In this document: positions 6,159 to 60,502 of the stretch, piece by piece | Layout: each line of letters starts with the position of its first letter | How positions within the stretch are numbered: the stretch's first letter is position 1 | NCBI GenBank assembly: GCA_943350445.1 | Contig: CALRAE010000002.1 | Coordinates: forward strand, 2,134 to 66,133 | Direction of reading: 5' to 3' | Length of the DNA stretch: 64,000 bases | Source: Candidatus Nomurabacteria bacterium | Lineage (GTDB): Bacteria; Patescibacteriota; Minisyncoccia; Phycocordibacterales; UBA9973 | Program-made: the position numbers and the translations under genes | Notes under the pieces: model-generated | Told to the model about the DNA's origin: nothing | What the model saw: only the letters and a program-made list of their open reading frames with translations | The model's database searches: none

Positions 6159-7976
6159 ATGAAAATTTCTTACAATTGGCTTAAATGGTACGTGCCCGAT
6201 GTTCCAACTGCAGATAAACTCGTAGATATTTTTAATTATCATCTGTGTGAAGTTGAGAGTATTGAAAAAAGAGAAGACGGAGATATAATTCTTGATTTAA
6301 AAATATTACCAAATCGTGCGCATGACCTCCTTTCTCATCAAGGAGTGGCTCGAGAGCTTGCTTCACTTTTGAATATTGCATACGTTGATCCAACGCCGAA
6401 ATATAAAATTCCGGAATCCAAAACAACTAAACTAGAAGTAAAAATTGATACAGGAAACTGCCGTCGTTACATGGGTAGAATAATCAAAAATGTGAAGGTC
6501 GGACCAACACCCGACTGGGTGGTGCAACATTTAGCATCAATAGGTCAAAGAAGTATAAATAACATAGTAGATGCGGCAAACATCGTCATGTTCGACTGTG
6601 GACAGCCAACGCATGCTTTTGATCTAGATAAAGTTCAGGGTGGAGTAGTAGTGAGAGAAGCAAAAGACGGAGAGGCTCTGAACACACTTGATAACAAAGC
6701 AGTAACTTTTAAAAATTCCAATGTCATTATTGCTGATTCTAAAAATACTCTCGCAATTGCTGGAATCAAGGGTGGGAAAATAGCAGAGGTTGATAATAAT
6801 ACAAAAAATATAATTCTAGAATGCGCTAATTTCGACTCGATATCTGTGCGTAAAACTGCTCAAGCCTTAAATATTTTTACAGACGCTCGAAAACGTTTTG
6901 AGAACGATCTATCTCCAGAATTAGCTCCATATGCTATGCGAGAGCTATCTTCTTTAATTTTTGAGATGTGTCCTGAGGCAACTTTTGAAGATATCGTGGA
7001 TATATATCCAAAGAAACAAGAATCAAGAAAGCTTTCTTTTTCTACCGATAGAGTTTCAAAAATTTTGGGTTTGAAAGTTTCCGTAGATGAGATAAAAGAT
7101 ATTTTAAAGAGATATTTGTTTGAGTATGCAGAAAAAGCAGGGAAGTTTGAGATTGTGGTGCTAACAATGCGCCTCGATTTAACTATTGAAGAAGATATGG
7201 CAGAAGAAATAGTCCGAATCCTTGGATATGACAAGGTTAAAGGAGATATTCCAAAGATAAATTTTAAACCGCAGGTAAATAAAACTCGGGCAAAGATAAT
7301 GTGGGCGAGGAATAAACTGCTGGCTGAGGGATATAGCGAGGCCATGACATATGCTTTTTGCAATAAAGGGGAAGTGGAAGTGCAAAATAGCGCTTCAGAC
7401 AAAAAGTTCTTGAGGACTAATCTGTCGGACGGATTAAAAGAAAGCATTAAGCTCAATCAATTGAATGCTCCATTTTTGGGAAGTGATAAAGTTCAAGTTT
7501 TTGAAATTGGCACTGTTTTCAAAAAATCTGGCGAAGAAATGCATGTGGCTTTTGGAGATAAAAAGGGGGTTAAAGAGATGAAGCTAGATGAATTTATTTC
7601 ACCACCTCGCCTTTCAGGCTCTCCTCCTCAGAAAGGAGGAGAGGAATTTCCTCCCCAATTTGGTAAGGAGGGGGCAGGGGGTGGTAATTTCAAAATGTGG
7701 TCTCTATTTCCTTTTATCGCCCGTGATGTGGCTGTGTGGGTGCCGGAGAATATAAAAAGTGCGGAAGTCCTAAAAGTCATAAAAGAAAATACAGGGGATA
7801 TGGTTATCCGCGGGCCGGAACTTTTTGATGAATTCAAGAAAGATGGGAAAGTTTCCTATGCGTTTAGAATGGTTTTCCAGTCGTATGACAGGACTCTGAC
7901 AGATGCAGAAACAAACGAAATAATGGCAAAAATAACTAGTAAGATTAAAGAAAATAACGGTTGGCAAGTGAGGTAG
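6159..7976 (+). CDS. pheT: Phenylalanine--tRNA ligase beta subunit, short form lacking the N-terminal tRNA-binding domain, with an in-frame G/P/E-rich insertion
   Basis: B3/4 and B5 regions (DLTIEEDMAEEIVRILGYDKV). C-terminal FDX-ACB segment (FPFIARDVAVWVPENI). Insert SPPRLSGSPPQKGGEEFPPQFGKEGAGGGNFK coincides with the family B element. Confidence 0.8.
   Translation: MKISYNWLKWYVPDVPTADKLVDIFNYHLCEVESIEKREDGDIILDLKILPNRAHDLLSHQGVARELASLLNIAYVDPTPKYKIPESKTTKLEVKIDTGNCRRYMGRIIKNVKVGPTPDWVVQHLASIGQRSINNIVDAANIVMFDCGQPTHAFDLDKVQGGVVVREAKDGEALNTLDNKAVTFKNSNVIIADSKNTLAIAGIKGGKIAEVDNNTKNIILECANFDSISVRKTAQALNIFTDARKRFENDLSPELAPYAMRELSSLIFEMCPEATFEDIVDIYPKKQESRKLSFSTDRVSKILGLKVSVDEIKDILKRYLFEYAEKAGKFEIVVLTMRLDLTIEEDMAEEIVRILGYDKVKGDIPKINFKPQVNKTRAKIMWARNKLLAEGYSEAMTYAFCNKGEVEVQNSASDKKFLRTNLSDGLKESIKLNQLNAPFLGSDKVQVFEIGTVFKKSGEEMHVAFGDKKGVKEMKLDEFISPPRLSGSPPQKGGEEFPPQFGKEGAGGGNFKMWSLFPFIARDVAVWVPENIKSAEVLKVIKENTGDMVIRGPELFDEFKKDGKVSYAFRMVFQSYDRTLTDAETNEIMAKITSKIKENNGWQVR
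7598..7692. repeat. Family B palindromic element, composite copy, in frame inside pheT. CTCCTCCTcagaaAGGAGGAG plus CCTCCCCaatttggtaAGGAGGGGG, with outer arms TCACCACC / GGGGGTGGTAA
   Basis: Nested perfect palindromes seen directly. The GGGGGTGGTAATT tail is shared with the mnmA copy. Confidence 0.65.
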
Positions 7977-43530: not shown

Positions 43531-44329
43531 AAAAATAAAACGTAAAAAGCTCTCGTATATTTTTTCATTTGTTTTTCTCTGTATCATTTTGTTTTATTTT
43601 CAAGTTGGTATTATAAATGGATTGTCTTATGTTAGTCATAAAGTTTTTAGCCCGATTTTATTTTTAGGAAATAATATTGGAGAAAAATTTACTAGTTTTG
43701 GTTCCTTTTTTATTTCAAAAAAATCTCTTTATTTAGAAAATCAAGATTTAAAATCAACATTAGATATAGACAGAGCAAAAATGTCGAATTATGATTCTAT
43801 TTTAGCTGAAAATATTTCTCTTAAAGAAATTTCGGGACGCAAAAATGAGAATGTGCCTATGGTTTTAGGTGTTATTTTGTCTAAACCAAACCAGAGTCCT
43901 TATGGCACACTTGTCATTGATGTAGGTCTCAAAGATGGTTTAAAATCGGGTGACCAGGTTTTTGCATTAGGCAATGTGCCAATTGGAACTATTGCTGAAA
44001 CTTATGTTAATTCTTCAAAGGTGACCCTTTTTTCAAATAGTGGCCAAAAAACTCAAGTAGTGGTTGGTCAAAAAAATGAGGAATCCAAAGCTGGTAAAAG
44101 TGTCTTTATGGAAATTGTTGGACGAGGTGGGGGAAATTTTGAAATGATTTTGCCGAGAGACTTTACATTACAAAAAGGGGATCAGGTTTTGTTGCCAGGT
44201 ATTAACAATCTTTTGGTGGGTATCGTCGAGACCATACTTTCTGACCCGCGTGAGCCTTTTATTAAAGCATTGATTGTTTCTCCAGTGAACGTGCAAGAAC
44301 TAAAATTCGTTGAAGTAGAAGTGAAATAA
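43499..44329 (+). CDS. mreC: Rod-shape-determining protein MreC
   Basis: N-terminal TM helix. Coiled coil. C-terminal beta-rich domain GDQVFALGNVPIGTIAETYV. Position after mreB. Confidence 0.7.
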   Translation: MEIKMSYLLDKKIKRKKLSYIFSFVFLCIILFYFQVGIINGLSYVSHKVFSPILFLGNNIGEKFTSFGSFFISKKSLYLENQDLKSTLDIDRAKMSNYDSILAENISLKEISGRKNENVPMVLGVILSKPNQSPYGTLVIDVGLKDGLKSGDQVFALGNVPIGTIAETYVNSSKVTLFSNSGQKTQVVVGQKNEESKAGKSVFMEIVGRGGGNFEMILPRDFTLQKGDQVLLPGINNLLVGIVETILSDPREPFIKALIVSPVNVQELKFVEVEVK

Positions 44330-45651
44330 TGAATTTTAAAATAGAAAAAAAATTAAAAAATAGTTTGGGTCGGGTGGGGGTTCTCACAACTTCACACGGA
44401 ATAATACAAACTCCCGCTTTTGTGGCAGTGGGCACCAAGGCTACTATAAAATCCTTAAATCCTGAACAGGTAAAAGATGCTGGCACACAAGTAGTGCTAG
44501 GCAATACCTATCATTTATATTTACAACCCGGAGATGAAATAGTCCGCGGGGCGGGCGGTATCGGTAAATTTATGAATTGGAGTGGGCCGACAATGACAGA
44601 CTCTGGTGGCTTTCAAGTTTTTTCTTTGGGTGCGGCTTATGGTAAACAAATTTCAAAGATAACTAAAATAACTGATCCATCTCTACTTATTCCAGAACGT
44701 TTCGATGATTCTGATGCTCCCAGGTTGGCGAAAATTGGGCAAGATGGGGTTTCTTTTAAATCACACTTGGATGGTTCTATTCATTACATCACTCCAGAGA
44801 AATCAATTCAGATTCAGCATAATTTGGGCGCGGATATAATTTTTGCATTTGACGAATGCACCAGTCCGACAGAAGATTTGAAATATCAAGAAGAAGCCCT
44901 CGAGCGGACACACCGATGGGCAGAGAGGAGTTTAGATGAACACAAGAAATTGGAAGAGTTAAAAAACATGGAAGAAGTGAAAAATAAAGCAGATTCTTCC
45001 TTTTTTGGGTCGCTGTCTACGGGTGCTCCCGTAGCGCTGCCTCTCAGCCCGTCGGCTTGCGAGACACCCAAAAAAGAAAAATCTGCTGACTTTTCACAAG
45101 CGCTATTCGGCATCGTCCAAGGTGGACGAGATGAGGCTCTACGAAAAAAATCAGCAAAGTTTATTTCTAGTCTAGATTTTGATGGGTTTGGTATTGGGGG
45201 TTCATTTGCAAAAGAAGACATGTCGACGGCGGTGAAATGGGTAAATGAAATTTTGCCCGAAGAAAAGCCTCGACACCTCCTCGGCATCGGTGAGCCTGAA
45301 GATTTATTTATGGGGATTGAAAATGGAGTAGATTTATTTGACTGCGTAGCTCCGACTAGACTTGGAAGAAATGGAACTTTGTACACTAAAAATGGGAAAA
45401 TTATAATCATGAATCGACAATTTAGAGAAGATTATTCTCCCATTGAGCGGGATTGTGCCTGCTATTCTTGCCAAAACTATACAAAAGCCTACATTGCGCA
45501 CCTTTTTCACGGCAAAGAAATGCTTGCGGGCACATTGGCTTCGATACATAATTTATATTTTATAGTCAATCTAGTGAAGAAAATAAGGCAGTCAATTTTG
45601 GACGATAATTTCTTCGAATTTAAAGAAGAATTTCTAAAAGAGTATCTATAG
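44329..45651 (+). CDS. tgt: Queuine tRNA-ribosyltransferase with a ~60-aa low-complexity GC-rich insertion
   Basis: TPAFVAVGTKATIKSL. GNTYHLYLQPG. C-terminal Zn site CACYSCQNY..H. Insert at about nt 44940..45110. Confidence 0.85.
   Translation: MNFKIEKKLKNSLGRVGVLTTSHGIIQTPAFVAVGTKATIKSLNPEQVKDAGTQVVLGNTYHLYLQPGDEIVRGAGGIGKFMNWSGPTMTDSGGFQVFSLGAAYGKQISKITKITDPSLLIPERFDDSDAPRLAKIGQDGVSFKSHLDGSIHYITPEKSIQIQHNLGADIIFAFDECTSPTEDLKYQEEALERTHRWAERSLDEHKKLEELKNMEEVKNKADSSFFGSLSTGAPVALPLSPSACETPKKEKSADFSQALFGIVQGGRDEALRKKSAKFISSLDFDGFGIGGSFAKEDMSTAVKWVNEILPEEKPRHLLGIGEPEDLFMGIENGVDLFDCVAPTRLGRNGTLYTKNGKIIIMNRQFREDYSPIERDCACYSCQNYTKAYIAHLFHGKEMLAGTLASIHNLYFIVNLVKKIRQSILDDNFFEFKEEFLKEYL
45008..45070. 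repeat. GC-rich insert inside tgt containing the palindrome CTACGGGtgctCCCGTAG (family C)
   Basis: Seen directly at 45018..45034. Local GC is about 65%, against about 38% background. Confidence 0.5.
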
Positions 45652-45690
45652 GGTTACCACCCCTAGCCCCTCCTTGATTAAGGAGGGGAG
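45652..45690. repeat. Family B element, intergenic copy, abutting the tgt stop codon: GGTTACCACCCCtagCCCCTCCTTGattaAGGAGGGG
   Basis: Nearly identical to the copy at 45951..45999. Reverse orientation relative to the pheT/mnmA copies. Confidence 0.65.
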
Positions 45691-45767
45691 GACACGGGAG
45701 TTATCCCCACTTTTCCTTACCCGACATATATATTATTGATATAATGTAGATATTTCCGAGTAAAAAA

Positions 45768-48700
45768 GTGAAACAAAAAAATAAATTTTTTAGGGCATAT
45801 ATAAAAAGGTTTTCACTTGGACTCTTTGTCTTTGCTTTTTTTGTTTTTCTACCTACTTCTAGTGTATTTGCAGCAGCTACAAAAGACTCATTAATGAATG
45901 CTTTTAAGAGTTATGTAACTGTACTTACTACACCTGTTAACAATCAAGTAGTTACCACCACCCCACCTCCGGCACCCCTCCTTGATCAAGGAGGGGAAAG
46001 GGGTCCTAATCCTGTTTCTATTCCTGTAACACCACCACCCCCTTCGTCAAGCTCAGGGCAGGAAATAGTCTACGTCACACCACAACCTACAATAAACGAA
46101 GCAACCCTTCTTTCTGCTTTAAGAAACCTTCTCTCAAAAAAAGAAATTGCTAACAAATTACGTGGGTCACAAGGAGCACAAGGTATCCAAGGCCTTCAGG
46201 GTCCACAAGGAGCATCAGTTACACCAGCACCAAATCCTATCTCTTATCTACCTGTTCATATCTCATACCCTAATCCTTCTGTAAACTTCTCTGGTGGTGC
46301 TTCTGCAAACATAGCTAATCTATCTTCAAACATTCTCACTGCTACTACTTCTAATATTACTACTTTGAATGTGGCTGGAACTTCTACTCTTGCAGGAACT
46401 CTAAATGTCACTGGTGCCGTCACTCTTCCGTCTTCTGGAAGTTTAACTTCGCCTTTGGTTATTGGTTCTACATCTGCTAATGGCACTTTGACCTTAGAAG
46501 GTAACAACACTACAGGCAATACCGCAACTAATGCAAACTTAATATTCAAGGTTGGTAATAATGCAGCAACTACTGCGATGACTATTTTGAATAATGGCAA
46601 TGTGGGGGTGGGGACGACGACTCCAGGAAGATTTGTCGATTTGTTTTATACGGAGCCAGGTGCAACTCGTGCTTACAATTACCTACGTTTGACTGCTAAT
46701 AGTGCTGTGGGAGCTCATCATGGTACATCTGTCATCGAAGGATTTTATAAGGATAGTGGAAACGGTAATAGTTTTACTCACAGCCAGATCGCATTGGAGG
46801 GGACATCAGTCGGCAATGGTGCTGTAAATTCTATTGGTGAAATCTTGTTTTTGACAAAGTCAGATACAGGTAGCGCGTCAGCATTGCCTACTGAAAAGAT
46901 GCGTGTGACTAGTGATGGAAAATTACTTATTGGAACCAATCGAAATGGTACTGAGGATGGTGATTTGAGTTTCTATGGTATTTCCAATAGACTCATTTCT
47001 ATAGGATCAAATCCAAGTACCAATGTGGAAGGTAAAGACTTAACTATTAGGGCAGGAAATCCTTACCCGTCATCCACCAATCTAACAGGAGGGACTCTCA
47101 ATCTTTCAGGTGGAAAATCATCTGGCACAGGGACATCACAAATTCAATTCCAGACTGCTACCGCAGGTTCTACAGGAAACTCTGTTGTGACCCCAACAAC
47201 TAAAATGACAATTTTAGGTTCCGGCAACGTGGGGATTGGGACGACGAGTCCAGGTCTCCCACTCCAAGTTGTTGGTCACGTAAATGAATTTATTGCAGAT
47301 TTTTTATATAGCTCCTCTGGCTCAGGCGTTGCAGTTGGTGGTGGGGTTAATGGCACAACCGCATGGGTAGCGAGTGATTATCTTGGTGCGACTGAACCAA
47401 AACTACATTTAGCAACCTGGTCTAATCGTGCTAATGCAAATGGTATCACTATTGATACCTCTGGCAACGTCGGGATCGGGACGACGAATCCTAGTATCGG
47501 TTCGTGGGGTAAGGCTTTGACCATTCTTAATAACGGCTTGAACACTACCGCAGCCGCACTTGAAATTGCTTCTTTTGGACTCACAGCAGGAGACGGAGAA
47601 AGCGCTCTTAGTTTTGTAAATGGTGTTGATCTAGGTAATCGTTGGGAGGTGGGACGAATTCAGGCAATTCGTGGTGCTACCGACAATGGTTCAGGTCATA
47701 TTGCGCTATCTACACGAGTGAGTGCAACAGGAGGAGGTTTGGCTGAAGTGATGCGCTTGACTGACGATGGCAAAGTCGGTATCGGCGACACTACTCCAGA
47801 TTATAAATTAGACATAGAGACAGATGTTGCTTCGTATGTTGCCAACTTCTTCAATGATGGCAATCTTGCCACCCGTAGCGGTATCCTTATCCAAGGAGGC
47901 TTAGATGATCACACTGCAGCCGGACCATCCACTCTCATTGGTTTCCAAGATGGTGACGGTGGTGCTGTCGGATCAATCACTTTTGGTTCATCTGCCACAG
48001 CATACAACACTACATCAGACCAAAGATTAAAGAATTTAGTAAACGAAAATACTACTTCATCTCTCAATATCTTAAATCAAATAAAAATTCATGATTTCAC
48101 ATGGAAAGAAGATGCTAACCATAATCTATACACTGGAATCTTCGCTCAAGAGCTCTATGATGTTTATCCTCACGCAATTACTAAACCAATCAATGATGCA
48201 GACAACTGGATGGTGGATTATTCTAAACTCACCCCTGTAATGATCGCATCTATCCAAGAACTAGATCTAAACTTAAATAGTATCGCGGGCACTATCACTC
48301 CACTTGCTGGCTCAGCCAATGAATCTTTCGTGAATGCTTTCTTCGCAAACATTTTTTCCAAGGTTGATAATTGGATGGCGGATCGGGCGAATGGGATAGG
48401 AGATTTCTTTGCAGACAAAGTACATACAAAGCAAATCTGTGTTGCGAAAGCTGATGGCACAGAATTTTGTGCAGATGGTGACCAACTTCAAGCTATGGCA
48501 GGGGGATCAGGAACACCTCCAGCGCCAACCCCTACTCCAGCTCCAGTCCCCGCACCATCATCCGACACCACTCCACCAGTCATCACCCTCACAGGTGAAT
48601 CTACAATAACTTTAAACGTGGGAGACACATATACTGAACAAGGAGCCACAGCCACAGATAATGTAGACACAGGAGTAGCTGTCATAATCAGTGGTTCTGT

Positions 48701-48800
48701 AGATACATCTGTTGCAGGCACATACACTATCACTTATAATGCCACTGACACAGCAGGGAATAATGCGATAGAGGTGGCGAGGAGTGTAGTGGTTCAATAA
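45768..48800 (+). CDS. Large secreted fibre protein (GTG start). Collagen-like G-x-y triplets, repeated NVGIGTT(S/N)P beta-helix-like motifs, a peptidase-S74-type intramolecular chaperone domain, a Pro/Thr linker and a C-terminal Ig-like (DUF5011-type) domain
   Basis: Signal/TM N-terminus. GSQGAQGIQGLQGPQGAS. At least 4 NVGIGTTxP repeats. S-D-x-R-L-K motif TSDQRLKNL followed by ..GIFAQELYDVYPHAI..VDYSKLTPVMIASIQEL. (PT)n linker. C-terminus ITLTGESTITLNVGDTYTEQGATATDNVD..VAGTYTITYNATDTAGN. Confidence 0.6.
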   Translation: MKQKNKFFRAYIKRFSLGLFVFAFFVFLPTSSVFAAATKDSLMNAFKSYVTVLTTPVNNQVVTTTPPPAPLLDQGGERGPNPVSIPVTPPPPSSSSGQEIVYVTPQPTINEATLLSALRNLLSKKEIANKLRGSQGAQGIQGLQGPQGASVTPAPNPISYLPVHISYPNPSVNFSGGASANIANLSSNILTATTSNITTLNVAGTSTLAGTLNVTGAVTLPSSGSLTSPLVIGSTSANGTLTLEGNNTTGNTATNANLIFKVGNNAATTAMTILNNGNVGVGTTTPGRFVDLFYTEPGATRAYNYLRLTANSAVGAHHGTSVIEGFYKDSGNGNSFTHSQIALEGTSVGNGAVNSIGEILFLTKSDTGSASALPTEKMRVTSDGKLLIGTNRNGTEDGDLSFYGISNRLISIGSNPSTNVEGKDLTIRAGNPYPSSTNLTGGTLNLSGGKSSGTGTSQIQFQTATAGSTGNSVVTPTTKMTILGSGNVGIGTTSPGLPLQVVGHVNEFIADFLYSSSGSGVAVGGGVNGTTAWVASDYLGATEPKLHLATWSNRANANGITIDTSGNVGIGTTNPSIGSWGKALTILNNGLNTTAAALEIASFGLTAGDGESALSFVNGVDLGNRWEVGRIQAIRGATDNGSGHIALSTRVSATGGGLAEVMRLTDDGKVGIGDTTPDYKLDIETDVASYVANFFNDGNLATRSGILIQGGLDDHTAAGPSTLIGFQDGDGGAVGSITFGSSATAYNTTSDQRLKNLVNENTTSSLNILNQIKIHDFTWKEDANHNLYTGIFAQELYDVYPHAITKPINDADNWMVDYSKLTPVMIASIQELDLNLNSIAGTITPLAGSANESFVNAFFANIFSKVDNWMADRANGIGDFFADKVHTKQICVAKADGTEFCADGDQLQAMAGGSGTPPAPTPTPAPVPAPSSDTTPPVITLTGESTITLNVGDTYTEQGATATDNVDTGVAVIISGSVDTSVAGTYTITYNATDTAGNNAIEVARSVVVQ
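45951..45999. repeat. Family B element, copy in frame inside the fibre gene (encodes ..TTPPPAPLLDQGGERG..)
   Basis: GTTACCACCaCCCCAcctccggcaCCCCTCCTTGatcaAGGAGGGG, a close match to 45652..45690. Confidence 0.65.
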
Positions 48801-59320: not shown

Positions 59321-60502
59321 GTGATTTTACTAAATCAAATAAATACAATGAAAAGAAAGAAAGTTTTTGTGGGGATGTCAGGGGGTGTTGACTCTGCAGT
59401 TAGTGCAGCACTACTTAAAAAAGATGGATGTGAAGTTATCGGGGTTTTTATCAAGACTTGGCATCCGGACTTTTTAGAGTGCAATGAAGAAGAAGAGCGT
59501 AGGGACGCCATGCGTGTGGCGGCTTTTTTAGATATTCCATTTTTAACTTTTGACTTAGAAGACGTTTACAAAAAAGAAGTGGCGGATTATATGATACGTG
59601 AATATAAAGCAGGGAGGACGCCTAACCCAGATGTGATGTGCAATAAAGAGGTGAAATTTGGTGCCTTTCTTAAAAAAGCTATTTTGATGGGGGCTGATTT
59701 TGTAGCGACAGGGCATTATGCGCAAAATGCAAATGAAAACTTCAAAAATTCTCCCACCTTCGCCCTCGGAGACAAGAGGACAGGGGACCGACACGGCTCC
59801 TTGAATTCTTCAAGTTTTCATTTGCAAAAAGGTGTTGACCCTTCCAAAGACCAAAGTTATTTCCTATGGACACTCACTCAAGAGCAATTAAAGAAAATTT
59901 TGTTTCCTGTCGGGCATTTAAAAAAGACTGAAGTCCGCAAGTTGGCGAAGAAATTTAAATTACCAGTAGCAGAAAAGAAAGATAGTCAGGGGATATGCTT
60001 TTTGGGTGCGGTGGATCTAAAAGAATTCTTAAAGCATTATATTAAGTCGAAACAAGGCGAGGTGCAAAATGAGAAAGGAGAAAAAATTGGTTTTCATGAT
60101 GGTGTAGTTTTTCATACACTCGGCGAACGTCATGGTTTTATTATCACTAAGAAAAGTCCGAATGACGGACCACACTATGTGGTTAGTAAAGATATTGCAA
60201 AAAATATATTAGTAGTTTCTCAGAAATCTCCCCTCCTTGTCGAGGAGGGGGTGGGGGGTGGTAATTCAAAAAAGAATTCCTTATCTATTATTGATACGAA
60301 TTGGATTTCTGAAATTCCAGAACCAAACAAAAATTACACAGCTCAGATACGGTATCATGGTGAATTTTTATCATGTAAAGTAGATTGTGCAACATCGGAT
60401 GTTGCACAATTGGTTTTTAAAAAACCAGTTTTGGTGGCTTCTGGGCAGTCTGTTGTGGCCTACGACGGTGATATTTGTCTTGGTGGTGGGGTTGTTGTAT
60501 GA
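59321..60502 (+). CDS. mnmA: tRNA 2-thiouridine(34) synthase MnmA, carrying two in-frame palindromic insertions
   Basis: PP-loop VGMSGGVDSAVSA. ATGHYA. KDQSYFL. C-terminal beta-barrel. Inserts at 59729..59825 (family A) and 60228..60266 (family B). Confidence 0.85.
   Translation: MILLNQINTMKRKKVFVGMSGGVDSAVSAALLKKDGCEVIGVFIKTWHPDFLECNEEEERRDAMRVAAFLDIPFLTFDLEDVYKKEVADYMIREYKAGRTPNPDVMCNKEVKFGAFLKKAILMGADFVATGHYAQNANENFKNSPTFALGDKRTGDRHGSLNSSSFHLQKGVDPSKDQSYFLWTLTQEQLKKILFPVGHLKKTEVRKLAKKFKLPVAEKKDSQGICFLGAVDLKEFLKHYIKSKQGEVQNEKGEKIGFHDGVVFHTLGERHGFIITKKSPNDGPHYVVSKDIAKNILVVSQKSPLLVEEGVGGGNSKKNSLSIIDTNWISEIPEPNKNYTAQIRYHGEFLSCKVDCATSDVAQLVFKKPVLVASGQSVVAYDGDICLGGGVVV
59729..59825. repeat. Family A palindromic element, copy 2, in frame inside mnmA. 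Same core as the pheS copy, with a copy-specific 23-bp flanking IR (2 mismatches)
   Basis: Flanks GCAAATGAAAACTTcAAaAATTC / GAATTCTTCAAGTTTTCATTTGC. The core matches 5584..5649 with few substitutions. Confidence 0.7.
60228..60266. repeat. Family B element in frame inside mnmA: CTCCCCTCCTTGtcgAGGAGGGGGtGGGGGGTGGTAATTC
   Basis: Perfect palindrome plus the GGGGTGGTAATT tail shared with the pheT copy. Encodes ..LVEEGVGGGNSK.. Confidence 0.65.

Follow-up and report, generated by a model that had tools for sequence, protein, structure and literature searches.

BoxC, PIT and TM_ECO repeats, known from E. coli and other bacteria, are intrastrand triplex motifs (Holder et al. 2015, NAR 43:10126, PMC4666352), with earlier sources (Bergler 1992; Hoyne/Maher 2000) that are given here as cited in PMC4666352. 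The TM_ECO repeats are reported to be always intergenic, no mobility gene was ever found near them, and for the E. coli motif a stable triplex was found neither in double-stranded DNA nor in vivo (Holder 2015, PMC4666352). Salmonella is reported to lack TM_ECO. The REP, REPIN and BIME repeats, which are extragenic and have a GTAG or CGTC tag, are partnered by RAYT, a Y1 (HUH) transposase. The Rickettsia palindromic elements (RPE), reportedly described by Ogata in 2000, are about 100–150 bp long, and we know of no triplex build, cross-phylum relatives or associated nuclease gene for them. The mobile GC clusters of yeast mitochondria are GC-rich palindromes of an AT-rich genome, VAR1 has some of them in frame, and to our knowledge they have no link to DUF559.

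Here we describe a repeat family, family B, from a Candidatus Nomurabacteria bacterium, a tiny-genome, Paceibacteria/Nomurabacteria-like member of the CPR, in a window of 64,000 nt that comprises the whole stretch of DNA analysed. A family B unit has three blocks, namely a pyrimidine arm CCCCTCCTT that is followed by a loop, a purine arm AAGGAGGGG and, after 3–4 nt, a third block GGGGTGGTAA that repeats the purine arm in mirror order, with T in place of A; the unit ends are TTACCACC / GGTGGTAA. The units in the window are the following:

7599..7643, minus strand: pheT unit B, triplex motif on the minus strand, with the third-strand complement TCACCACCTC at 7599-7608, a small hairpin GCC-TTTCA-GGC at 7609-7619 and an intact hairpin TCTCCTCCTC-AGAA-AGGAGGAGAG at 7620-7643
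7650..7687, plus strand: pheT unit A, with a decayed pyrimidine arm CCTCCCC at 7650-7656, purine arm AAGGAGGGG at 7665-7673 and third strand GGGGTGGTAA at 7678-7687
45654..45703, minus strand: intergenic copy that begins 3 nt past the tgt stop codon, with TTACCACCCC at 45654-45663, a perfect hairpin at 45667-45688 and a weaker mirror block GGGAGTTA at 45696-45703 on the plus strand
45952..46009, minus strand: copy in a surface-protein gene (45768-48800, opposite orientation), with TTACCACCACCCC at 45952-45964, a perfect hairpin at 45975-45996 and a degenerate mirror block GGGGTCCTAA at 46000-46009
60230..60274, plus strand: mnmA copy, unit A only, with CCCCTCCTT at 60230-60238, GAGGAGGGG at 60242-60250, GGGGTGGTAA at 60255-60264 and then the tail TTCAAAAAAG

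The original prediction had placed motif copies at these four loci and had grouped them as one repeat family with two members in reverse orientation, and both points are borne out; all four copies are partial or decaying units. Its search pattern of a 10-mer, N4 and a 9-mer has no match, the spacing being off by one, while the corrected pattern CCCCTCCTT-N4-AAGGAGGGG gives three matches at up to 3 mismatches against 0.02 expected by chance. A generic triplex scan that requires an all-pyrimidine arm returns five matches, none of them outside the four loci and one of them at pheT unit B (7601-7641, minus strand, 0 mismatches; DNA fold z = -5.0); shuffled sequences give 0.03. Folding with ViennaRNA covers Watson-Crick hairpins only. 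The palindromes had been called perfect, which is true of the 9-bp stems at 45667-45688 and 45975-45996; the hairpin in mnmA (60230-60251) is imperfect, with an 8-bp stem at 60230-60250, and the stem of pheT unit A is decayed, the left arm of its AAGGAGGGG hairpin having become CCTCCCCAATTTGGT. The description as a palindrome joined to an arm was likewise incomplete, in that GGGGTGGTAA, which is exact at 7678, 45654 (minus strand) and 60255, mirrors the purine arm and is not a separate arm: direct reading of GGGGTGGTAA against reversed AAGGAGGGG gives nine of nine allowed triads (G*G:C and A/T*A:T) at three loci. GC had been put at about 70%, in agreement with values of 0.71 (60230-60250) and 0.64 (45975-45996) against 0.383 for the window.

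In more than 12 hairpin variants, changes in the purine arm are matched by changes in the third block. In 17 full elements from different genes and genomes, mean column identity is 72% and 95.6% of cells are paired, with compensatory pairs. Units are combined into inverted doublets and mosaics, as A-B and B-A pairs; several A-B copies have terminal inverted repeats of the MITE kind (GAATTC-CT-CCCCTCC ... GGAGGAG-AG-GAATTC), and some units have an additional small hairpin in the second loop. A covariance model of the full element matches pheT at 7544-7648 and finds no further copies within the window, motif scans of the other 17.2 kb of the contig find no more, and Rfam returns no family at gathering thresholds for the window and 10 loci. 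The mnmA copy is also present in the independent Logan assembly ERR3719144, identical at all 4246 overlapping bases, which answers the concern that the repeats could be an assembly artefact. A tRNA-like cloverleaf was considered for the pheT copy and rejected, as the window's only tRNA matches lie elsewhere and the conserved tRNA loop motifs are absent.

Judged by the order of their blocks, family B units have the build of the BoxC/PIT/TM intrastrand triplex motif: a C-rich pyrimidine stem, a loop, a purine stem, a loop of about 3 nt and a G-rich mirror block, with class II C-G-G triads common to TM_ECO and family B. Both groups also have many near-identical copies, inverted-pair ('palindromic') arrangements, GC far above that of the surrounding DNA and a tie to locally variable DNA. 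The sequences differ (CCCCTCCTT / AAGGAGGGG / GGGGTGGTAA in family B against CCCTCNCCC / GGGNGAGGG / GGGNGAGGG in TM_ECO). Because the generic scan demands an all-pyrimidine arm it missed the E. coli TM_ECO, and the published pattern, CCCTCNCCC-N3-6-GGGNGAGGG-N3-GGGNGAGGG, was used instead; it has no match in the window and one in the positive control beside E. coli ycjD, and family B is thus a separate sequence family of the same structural class. Whereas TM_ECO is reported to be confined to intergenic DNA, three of the four window loci lie inside ORFs, in frame, and a DUF559 gene adjoins family B or is flanked by it, an adjacency that recurs at E. coli ycjD. Family B units may form a triplex in the cell, for which CCCCTCCTTGATTAAGGAGGGGCTAGGGGTGGTAA is an oligonucleotide with the candidate triplex-forming sequence.

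Family B is like the RPE in that palindromes of several families interrupt housekeeping genes of a reduced genome without breaking the frame and are tolerated as extra peptide, but phylum and sequence are different, and similarity to RPE-1 to RPE-8 is unlikely because of the GC content and triplex build of family B. It is like the yeast clusters in being GC-rich palindromes in an AT-rich genome with some copies in frame in a coding gene, although theirs is an organelle system of unrelated sequence. The explanation that we favor, and consider probable, is that family B is a Patescibacterial lineage of selfish triplex-motif repeats, linked to DUF559, that survives in frame in permissive linkers.

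All three coding copies keep the reading frame and specify the Gly/Pro/Glu-rich loop peptides that had been quoted for them. Units A and B of pheT jointly encode ISPPRLSGSPPQKGGEEFPPQFGKEGAGGGN, which reads PPRLDKEGAGGGNF in PheT orthologues with the intact version, and the copies in mnmA and the surface-protein gene encode SPLLVEEGVGGGNSKK and VTTTPPPAPLLDQGGERGPN, respectively. Pfam confirms the hosts PheT and MnmA and the neighboring TGT, and the product of the gene described as a fibre gene is 1010 aa long and contains Peptidase_S74 and surface Ig-like domains. In the canonical loop TTGATTAA, which the tgt-proximal copy has, two of the three frames meet a TGA or TAA, and this accounts for the constant reading frame. 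Of 32 Patescibacterial copies, 16 lie in long ORFs and keep the frame, whereas 5 of 104 copies from elsewhere do so (p = 2.4e-8), and the hosts are RNase R, MnmA, UvrA, UvrB, TsaD, MetRS, FtsK and RsmA.

Could the peptides themselves be what is kept, as functional low-complexity linkers selected at the protein level, with the DNA similarity a by-product? The same type of peptide does occur in many enzymes, always at linkers. We give this account next to no weight, and it is already contradicted by the DNA: the same sequence is found in intergenic DNA and in both orientations, where it yields unrelated peptides (PAPLLDQGGERG versus KEGAGGGN), it is non-coding in other phyla, and its third-codon positions are more conserved than those of the gene core. 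The region is moreover predicted to be disordered; in an AlphaFold2 model, PheT residues 472-505 have pLDDT <50 and are without secondary structure, and the PheT insert is accordingly modeled as a disordered linker. Conservation of the mnmA element at the DNA level exceeds the gene background, with an identity between genomes of 83-94% against 74-80% for the gene core, a comparison over only 48 nt, and its GC is 0.54-0.58 against a core GC3 of 0.12-0.32.

The insertion sites are inter-domain hot spots that other insert families occupy as well, and one PheT site is common to at least ten recurring insert families. Of 121 PheT orthologues, 12 carry family B at this site. The genomes L035 and L079 have it at the same MnmA position as the window, whose mnmA copy lacks their unit B (42 nt) in the orthologue alignment. 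The original prediction had counted identical inserts in orthologues of distant taxa as evidence against it. Such inserts were found, yet their distribution is patchy and the closest PheT orthologues (81-82% identity) hold other inserts, a pattern that speaks for hot spots and long persistence and not against repeat DNA. The mnmA insert, which three genomes share, appears to have been inherited vertically, and mobility may therefore be rare. Neither a target-site duplication nor a clean empty site was found, because the PheT and MnmA sites always hold some insert; no direct repeat is consistent across the flanks either.

The family is not particular to its source genome but extends across phyla, a point that the original prediction had missed. 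An exact 18-nt pattern occurs at no fewer than 119 loci in several phyla, and nearly all of these are preceded by a matching pyrimidine arm, which lies outside the pattern. The motif is found in relatives of Geobacter, in Bacteroidota, in Planctomycetota and in others. Viral contigs have two pattern matches, both without a hairpin, which is the level of chance.

In a further alternative, the units are DNA or RNA structures that serve the host, as replication or recombination pause sites creating useful variation, as protein-binding sites or as Shine-Dalgarno (SD)/anti-SD-like mRNA hairpins, and DUF559 is a recruited repair enzyme. The arms do resemble SD and anti-SD sequences, a likeness that the original prediction had noted in copies not positioned as ribosome-binding sites and that we take to be incidental, but the copies lie away from gene starts and the motif is equally conserved in Bacteroidota, which make little use of SD. 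No terminator signature was found; in particular, the tgt-proximal copy has no terminator-like site, and a role for it as an intrinsic terminator, which had been considered, was not detected. Sequence and pairing are kept against strong AT pressure and the hot spots are hypervariable, both in favor of a host function, and TM_ECO loci are linked to higher local variability (Holder 2015, PMC4666352). Against this, RNA is reported not to form purine-motif triplexes (Holder 2015, PMC4666352), the window copies are truncated or decayed, and it is not evident what benefit placement within essential coding sequence would bring. We regard a host-serving role as very unlikely, and continue with the units as selfish repeats.

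A gene of about 120 aa with a Vsr fold, DUF559 (PF04480), recurs in nine pattern-anchored loci (Pfam E = 1.7e-32; 111.9 bits against a cut-off of 20.6). All nine aligned sequences have the nuclease motif residues D53, E64, D66 and H70, and structure matches include PDB 3HRL (E = 1.8e-28) and the homing endonuclease I-Bth0305I (3R3P, 2e-4). When loci were chosen by the protein alone, a formal triplex motif was found within 250 nt in 69 of 79, and of all 89 DUF559 genes 47 have the motif on both sides; motif density is 4.27 per kb near DUF559 and 0.096 per kb farther off, about a 45-fold difference. Beside E. coli ycjD a canonical BoxC/TM_ECO lies 168 nt downstream (chance ~0.004). DUF559 lineages partly track repeat variants, and the 81.6-kb contig that contains the window has no DUF559 gene. 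We found no report of the DUF559–repeat tie or of in-frame CPR inserts in the open-access literature, and both the tie and the in-frame housekeeping-gene copies in Patescibacteria appear to be new.

The arrangement resembles that of REP and RAYT, where short GC-rich hairpins also form inverted doublets and mosaics and a small nuclease gene is flanked by its cognate repeats. The REP tags are not in the family B consensus, REPs are without the mirror third block, and the partner of family B is a PD-(D/E)XK Vsr-fold DUF559 protein in place of a Y1 transposase. An IS200/IS605 or RAYT element, suggested by TTAC beside the hairpin, was rejected: no Y1 transposase appeared among the recurring ORFs, with Pfam run on part of their clusters, and the recurring gene, whose small product is the one directly flanked by repeats, is DUF559. 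A rare RAYT may still occur.

The gene is not always in the same place with respect to the units, being between third strands at some loci and beside complete pairs at others, so that it may be a passenger or homing gene just as well as a transposase-like one. If DUF559 were a free-standing homing endonuclease, the repeat would be its landing pad and not its product, and the repeats would spread otherwise, for example by replication slippage or template switching at non-B DNA, or by an unknown transposase. The gene often lies exactly between facing third strands (GGGGTGGT - gene - ACCACCCC), the position at which the A-B element without a gene has a short AT loop, resembling an empty homing site; the ORF often ends within the downstream unit, and DUF559 is related to I-Bth0305I. 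In Paceibacteria (L054, L122 and L124) and in L025, however, the gene is beside complete pairs and not inside them, and homing leaves the arrival of near-identical units in many unrelated genes and phyla unexplained. On balance we think the homing account unlikely, although it is the likeliest of the alternatives.

We return to the units as selfish or parasitic DNA repeats and not protein features selected for their sequence. Each consists, in order, of a pyrimidine arm, a complementary purine arm and a G/T-rich mirror block, usually in inverted pairs, and a small YcjD-like DUF559 gene for a putative Vsr-fold PD-(D/E)XK endonuclease is flanked by the repeats as RAYT is by REP. We hypothesize that the nuclease makes its cut in or close to the unusual DNA structure and that units are spread, replaced or homogenized during the repair or copying that follows, so that their mobility would be nuclease-driven. 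In CPR genomes, with scant intergenic DNA, the survivors would be stop-free copies that landed in frame where essential genes have permissive inter-domain linkers, and they would be translated as disordered loops rich in Gly and Pro. It is possible, and we propose it tentatively, that DUF559/YcjD-family Vsr-fold nucleases are the missing partners of BoxC/PIT-type repeats bacteria-wide, a second pairing of the REP-RAYT kind, and that the CPR system rewrites in-frame linkers. If this is true, a PD-(D/E)XK nuclease would recognize a non-B DNA structure, and essential genes of CPR would gain discrete, swappable insert families at hot spots.

CPR/Patescibacteria carry repeat DNA within essential coding sequences. 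Such inserts matter for annotation and for phylogenies built from marker proteins, they bear on the tolerance of selfish DNA by minimal genomes, and they form a natural map of where the loops of conserved enzymes tolerate insertions. BoxC/PIT/TM repeats have been known since the 1990s without a known origin, spreading mechanism or partner protein, and a reproducible link to DUF559, in several phyla and at ycjD in E. coli K-12, makes the question open to bench work in a model organism.

The four copies of the GC-rich repeat family B were all found at the positions given in the original prediction, in or beside four genes identified with Pfam:

6159-7976, PheT, host gene
44329-45651, TGT, host gene, with the copy after its stop codon
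45768-48800, a 1010-aa protein with Peptidase_S74 and surface Ig-like domains, host gene
59321-60502, MnmA, host gene

The literal search pattern proposed for these copies returns no match in the window, as its spacing is off by one base; the corrected pattern CCCCTCCTT-N4-AAGGAGGGG gives three matches at up to three mismatches against 0.02 expected, and exact GGGGTGGTAA occurs at 7678, 45654 (minus strand) and 60255. All three coding copies are in frame, as claimed, and the GC contrast is borne out, with hairpin cores at 64–71% GC against 38.3% across the window. The mnmA copy is identical base for base in an independent Logan assembly and therefore is not an assembly artefact. Named relatives of the window PheT come from Paceibacteria, Nomurabacteria or Patescibacteria, which makes the source a CPR bacterium. 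The observation stands; its interpretation was partly right, but overlooked that the units have a triplex build, belong to the known BoxC class and occur in several phyla.

Each unit consists of a pyrimidine arm, loop, purine arm, 3–4 nt and a third block, GGGGTGGTAA, which mirrors the purine arm (AAGGAGGGG reversed is GGGGAGGAA) with A replaced by T. G*G:C and T*A:T triads are thereby allowed at 9/9 positions, or 8/9 in the mnmA copy. A generic triplex scan (pyrimidine stem, purine stem and mirror block of 8 nt each, at most one mismatch) finds five sites in the window, all at the four loci, against 0.03 in locally shuffled sequence. The pheT locus contains two inverted triplex units with their third strands outermost (7599-7643, minus; 7650-7687, plus), and the two copies at 45.6–46.0 kb each have a hairpin with a mirror block on each side. 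This build is like that of the E. coli triplex motif TM_ECO (CCCTCNCCC-N3-6-GGGNGAGGG-N3-GGGNGAGGG), also published as the BoxC or PIT element, although the sequence is different, and the window contains nothing that fits the TM_ECO pattern. Holder et al. 2015 (PMC4666352) counted 23 copies in the E. coli K-12 genome and 3610 across 262 genomes of proteobacteria; they found that single strands of TM_ECO form a triplex in vitro, and a stable triplex in vivo was not seen. The motif class of family B is already known, and we consider it very probable that family B is not a protein-level feature but belongs among the repeat DNA of the BoxC/PIT structural class. The Shine-Dalgarno-like core is an incidental result of the polypurine arm; the copy after tgt, which is intergenic, is 80 nt away from the next start codon, and a search there for a terminator signature found none. 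Elsewhere in the window, a perfect 18-bp inverted repeat at 23998-24039 (AATAGTAAAAACACCCCA / TGGGGTGTTTTTACTATT, 6-nt loop), following an ORF at 23603-23980, is probably a bidirectional terminator unrelated to family B.

When one genome from each GTDB species was scanned for an exact 18-nt pattern, at least 119 loci matched. The matches listed include Geobacter and other Desulfuromonadales, Cytophagales, Sphingobacteriales, Scalindua and other Planctomycetota, Ignavibacteria, Nitrospirota, Nitrospinota, Saccharibacteria and others; among them a matching pyrimidine arm nearly always precedes the pattern, though it is not part of it, and ACCACCCC-hairpin-spacer-hairpin-GGGGTGGTAA is a frequent arrangement. 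Rfam, searched with the window and 10 loci, holds no matching family. Among the matches listed, the usual form in Patescibacteria, which we call A-B, is ~100 nt long and made of two triplex units inverted relative to each other: unit A, in which GGGGTGGTAA follows a hairpin, is joined by a short AT loop to TCACCACCTC, after which come a small hairpin that varies in length and the unit B hairpin (CTCCTCCTC/GAGGAGGAG). Seventeen A-B copies from different genes and genomes align with a mean column identity of 72% and share four helices, in which 95.6% of cells are paired and some changes are compensatory; the covariance model built from them matches the window at the four known loci only. Compared with the full element, the order of units in the pheT copy is permuted (B-A), and the mnmA copy is unit A alone, lacking exactly 42 nt of the full A-B found at the same mnmA site in two other genomes (L035, L079).

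Among the matches listed, 16/32 Patescibacteria copies lie inside long ORFs, 14 of the 16 in gene orientation, compared with 5/104 in other phyla (Fisher p = 2.4e-8). The host genes encode RNase R, MnmA (two sites), UvrA, UvrB, TsaD, MetRS, FtsK and RsmA, in addition to PheT in the window. The reading frame is constant because the canonical loop TTGATTAA, which occurs in the tgt-proximal copy, puts TGA/TAA in two of three frames and leaves AAG-GAG-GGG open. Inserts in PheT and MnmA fall between Pfam domains; when the window PheT was modelled with AlphaFold2 (71-sequence alignment, mean pLDDT 79.6), the insert (residues 472-505) had pLDDT <50 and no secondary structure, with the catalytic-like module on one side of it and the FDX-ACB domain on the other. 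Within the open-access literature, in-frame residence in essential CPR genes appears to be new.

This PheT linker before the FDX-ACB domain (window 7590-7690, residues ~470-515) is an insertion hot spot, with at least 10 discrete recurring insert families across 121 orthologues (P0002-P0120 and the window among them), such as NSPAFALGDTGQGTHGSLNSS, SSKEHGYFSAEKFLVLAPSRSQVS, SPLEEYPLGGGGKIIHPGASATPQEGN, SPDAFAQSLGSSLRSATPSQKHTGSAF, FLNGLAGVGDPENRGPKKTTLPMKF, LLQPSAGTFRLQNSS, ALPASGLRHEQNFS and LEPRSYNLEAKF; family B is present in 12/121. The families are interleaved on the protein-core tree, and the nearest orthologues of the window PheT (81–82% identity) carry other ones. Certain families also turn up in other genes, as LEPRTY does in a Patescibacterium RsmA/KsgA (L096, 3558-4475), a single gene with three different inserts: opposite-orientation family B (TTPNPSSTRRGGKES), a LEPRTY-type insert and a PPQPSPKEREESKSSPLGGGREGV segment. 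In MnmA there are two sites of this kind, and the families found at each differ between genomes. At the first (after TGHYA; window 59735-59820) the window carries a different insert, NFKNSPTFALGDKRTGDRHGSLNSSSFHLQKG, bounded by an 8-bp inverted repeat (GAAAACTT / AAGTTTTC) and folding no better than shuffles (z = -0.06), and two other genomes (L041, L059) carry family B. At the second, the window, L035 and L079 share the derived loop LLVEEG, and the insert looks inherited. Over only 48 nt compared, its DNA is 83–94% identical between genomes against 74–80% for the gene core, and its third-codon positions 69–94% against 53–62%; its GC is 54–58% against a core GC3 of 12–32%. Copies thus last for long times under a degree of DNA-level constraint or homogenisation, and the occupant of a site changes as well.

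Clustering all ORFs of the pattern-anchored loci revealed a recurring ~120-aa protein at no fewer than nine loci in at least four phyla. It is a DUF559 protein (Pfam, E = 1.7e-32) whose closest solved structure is 3HRL (E = 1.8e-28); the homing endonuclease I-Bth0305I (3R3P, E = 2e-4) matches more distantly. PD-(D/E)XK classification places the family with Vsr, and the nuclease motif residues are invariant. Units directly flank the gene, and the downstream one often contains the end of its ORF. In the reverse test, on 80 metagenome loci picked by protein alignment alone, a formal triplex motif lay within 250 nt in 69/79; overall, 47/89 DUF559 genes have one on both sides. Motif density is 4.27 per kb near the gene versus 0.096 per kb more than 500 nt away (2.96 versus 0.017 for a looser hairpin count). 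Upstream units mostly point their third strand toward the gene, downstream units are mostly inverted, and gene position relative to the units varies between loci. Arm variants (CCCCTCCTT, CCTCCCCT, CCCCTCTCCTT, CCCCCTCTT, GCTCCCCT) differ by nuclease lineage and track the protein clusters in part, and in every variant the third block mirrors its own purine arm. Tandem ACCACCCC-hairpin units, two to four head to tail, lie 3' of DUF559 at three loci (L188 1840-2050, L168, L091), sometimes with duplicated 3' ends of the gene. In a Bacteroidota MAG (L064, 4840-5400), a 22-bp direct repeat, GCATTTTTTAAAGTGAGATAAT, brackets the gene and an inverted triplex pair, and may represent either duplication of the target or a second copy of the following gene's 5' region. 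A search for target-site duplications or empty sites of the units found none.

Members of the subfamily are plentiful in Patescibacteria (1883 relatives at E <= 1e-20), and the 81,654-bp contig carrying the window, ENA ERZ27280223 k141_826318, has no DUF559 gene. At its end, 2.5–7 kb upstream of the window start (L205, 100-4700), this contig has a serine recombinase (Resolvase/Recombinase), RmuC and an N6/N4 DNA methyltransferase, probably an integrated mobile or restriction-modification island. Within the window, the composition of 22000-23150 (47% GC against 38%; one 327-aa ORF, 22045-23028) suggests a foreign origin.

E. coli K-12 fits the DUF559-repeat pattern: a hairpin spans the stop codon of its DUF559 gene, ycjD, and a canonical TM_ECO on the gene's strand follows 168 nt downstream of the gene, with a chance probability of ~0.004 given 23 copies per genome. 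Between the two, the last ~40 nt of the ycjD CDS are partly duplicated (GGAGACGGTGCTGGAGAATATTC...; L207, NC_000913.3 1351200-1351420), which looks like a rearrangement footprint at the repeat. According to Holder et al. 2015 (PMC4666352), whose paper nowhere uses the words 'endonuclease', 'DUF559' or 'ycjD', a mobility function had never turned up near TM_ECO. We found no link to repeats in the open-access literature on DUF559 or ycjD, within which the association appears to be new. We put the chances about even that DUF559, a putative nuclease, acts on the triplex units; it could be a nuclease that mobilises or homogenises them, or a homing gene with the units as its target.
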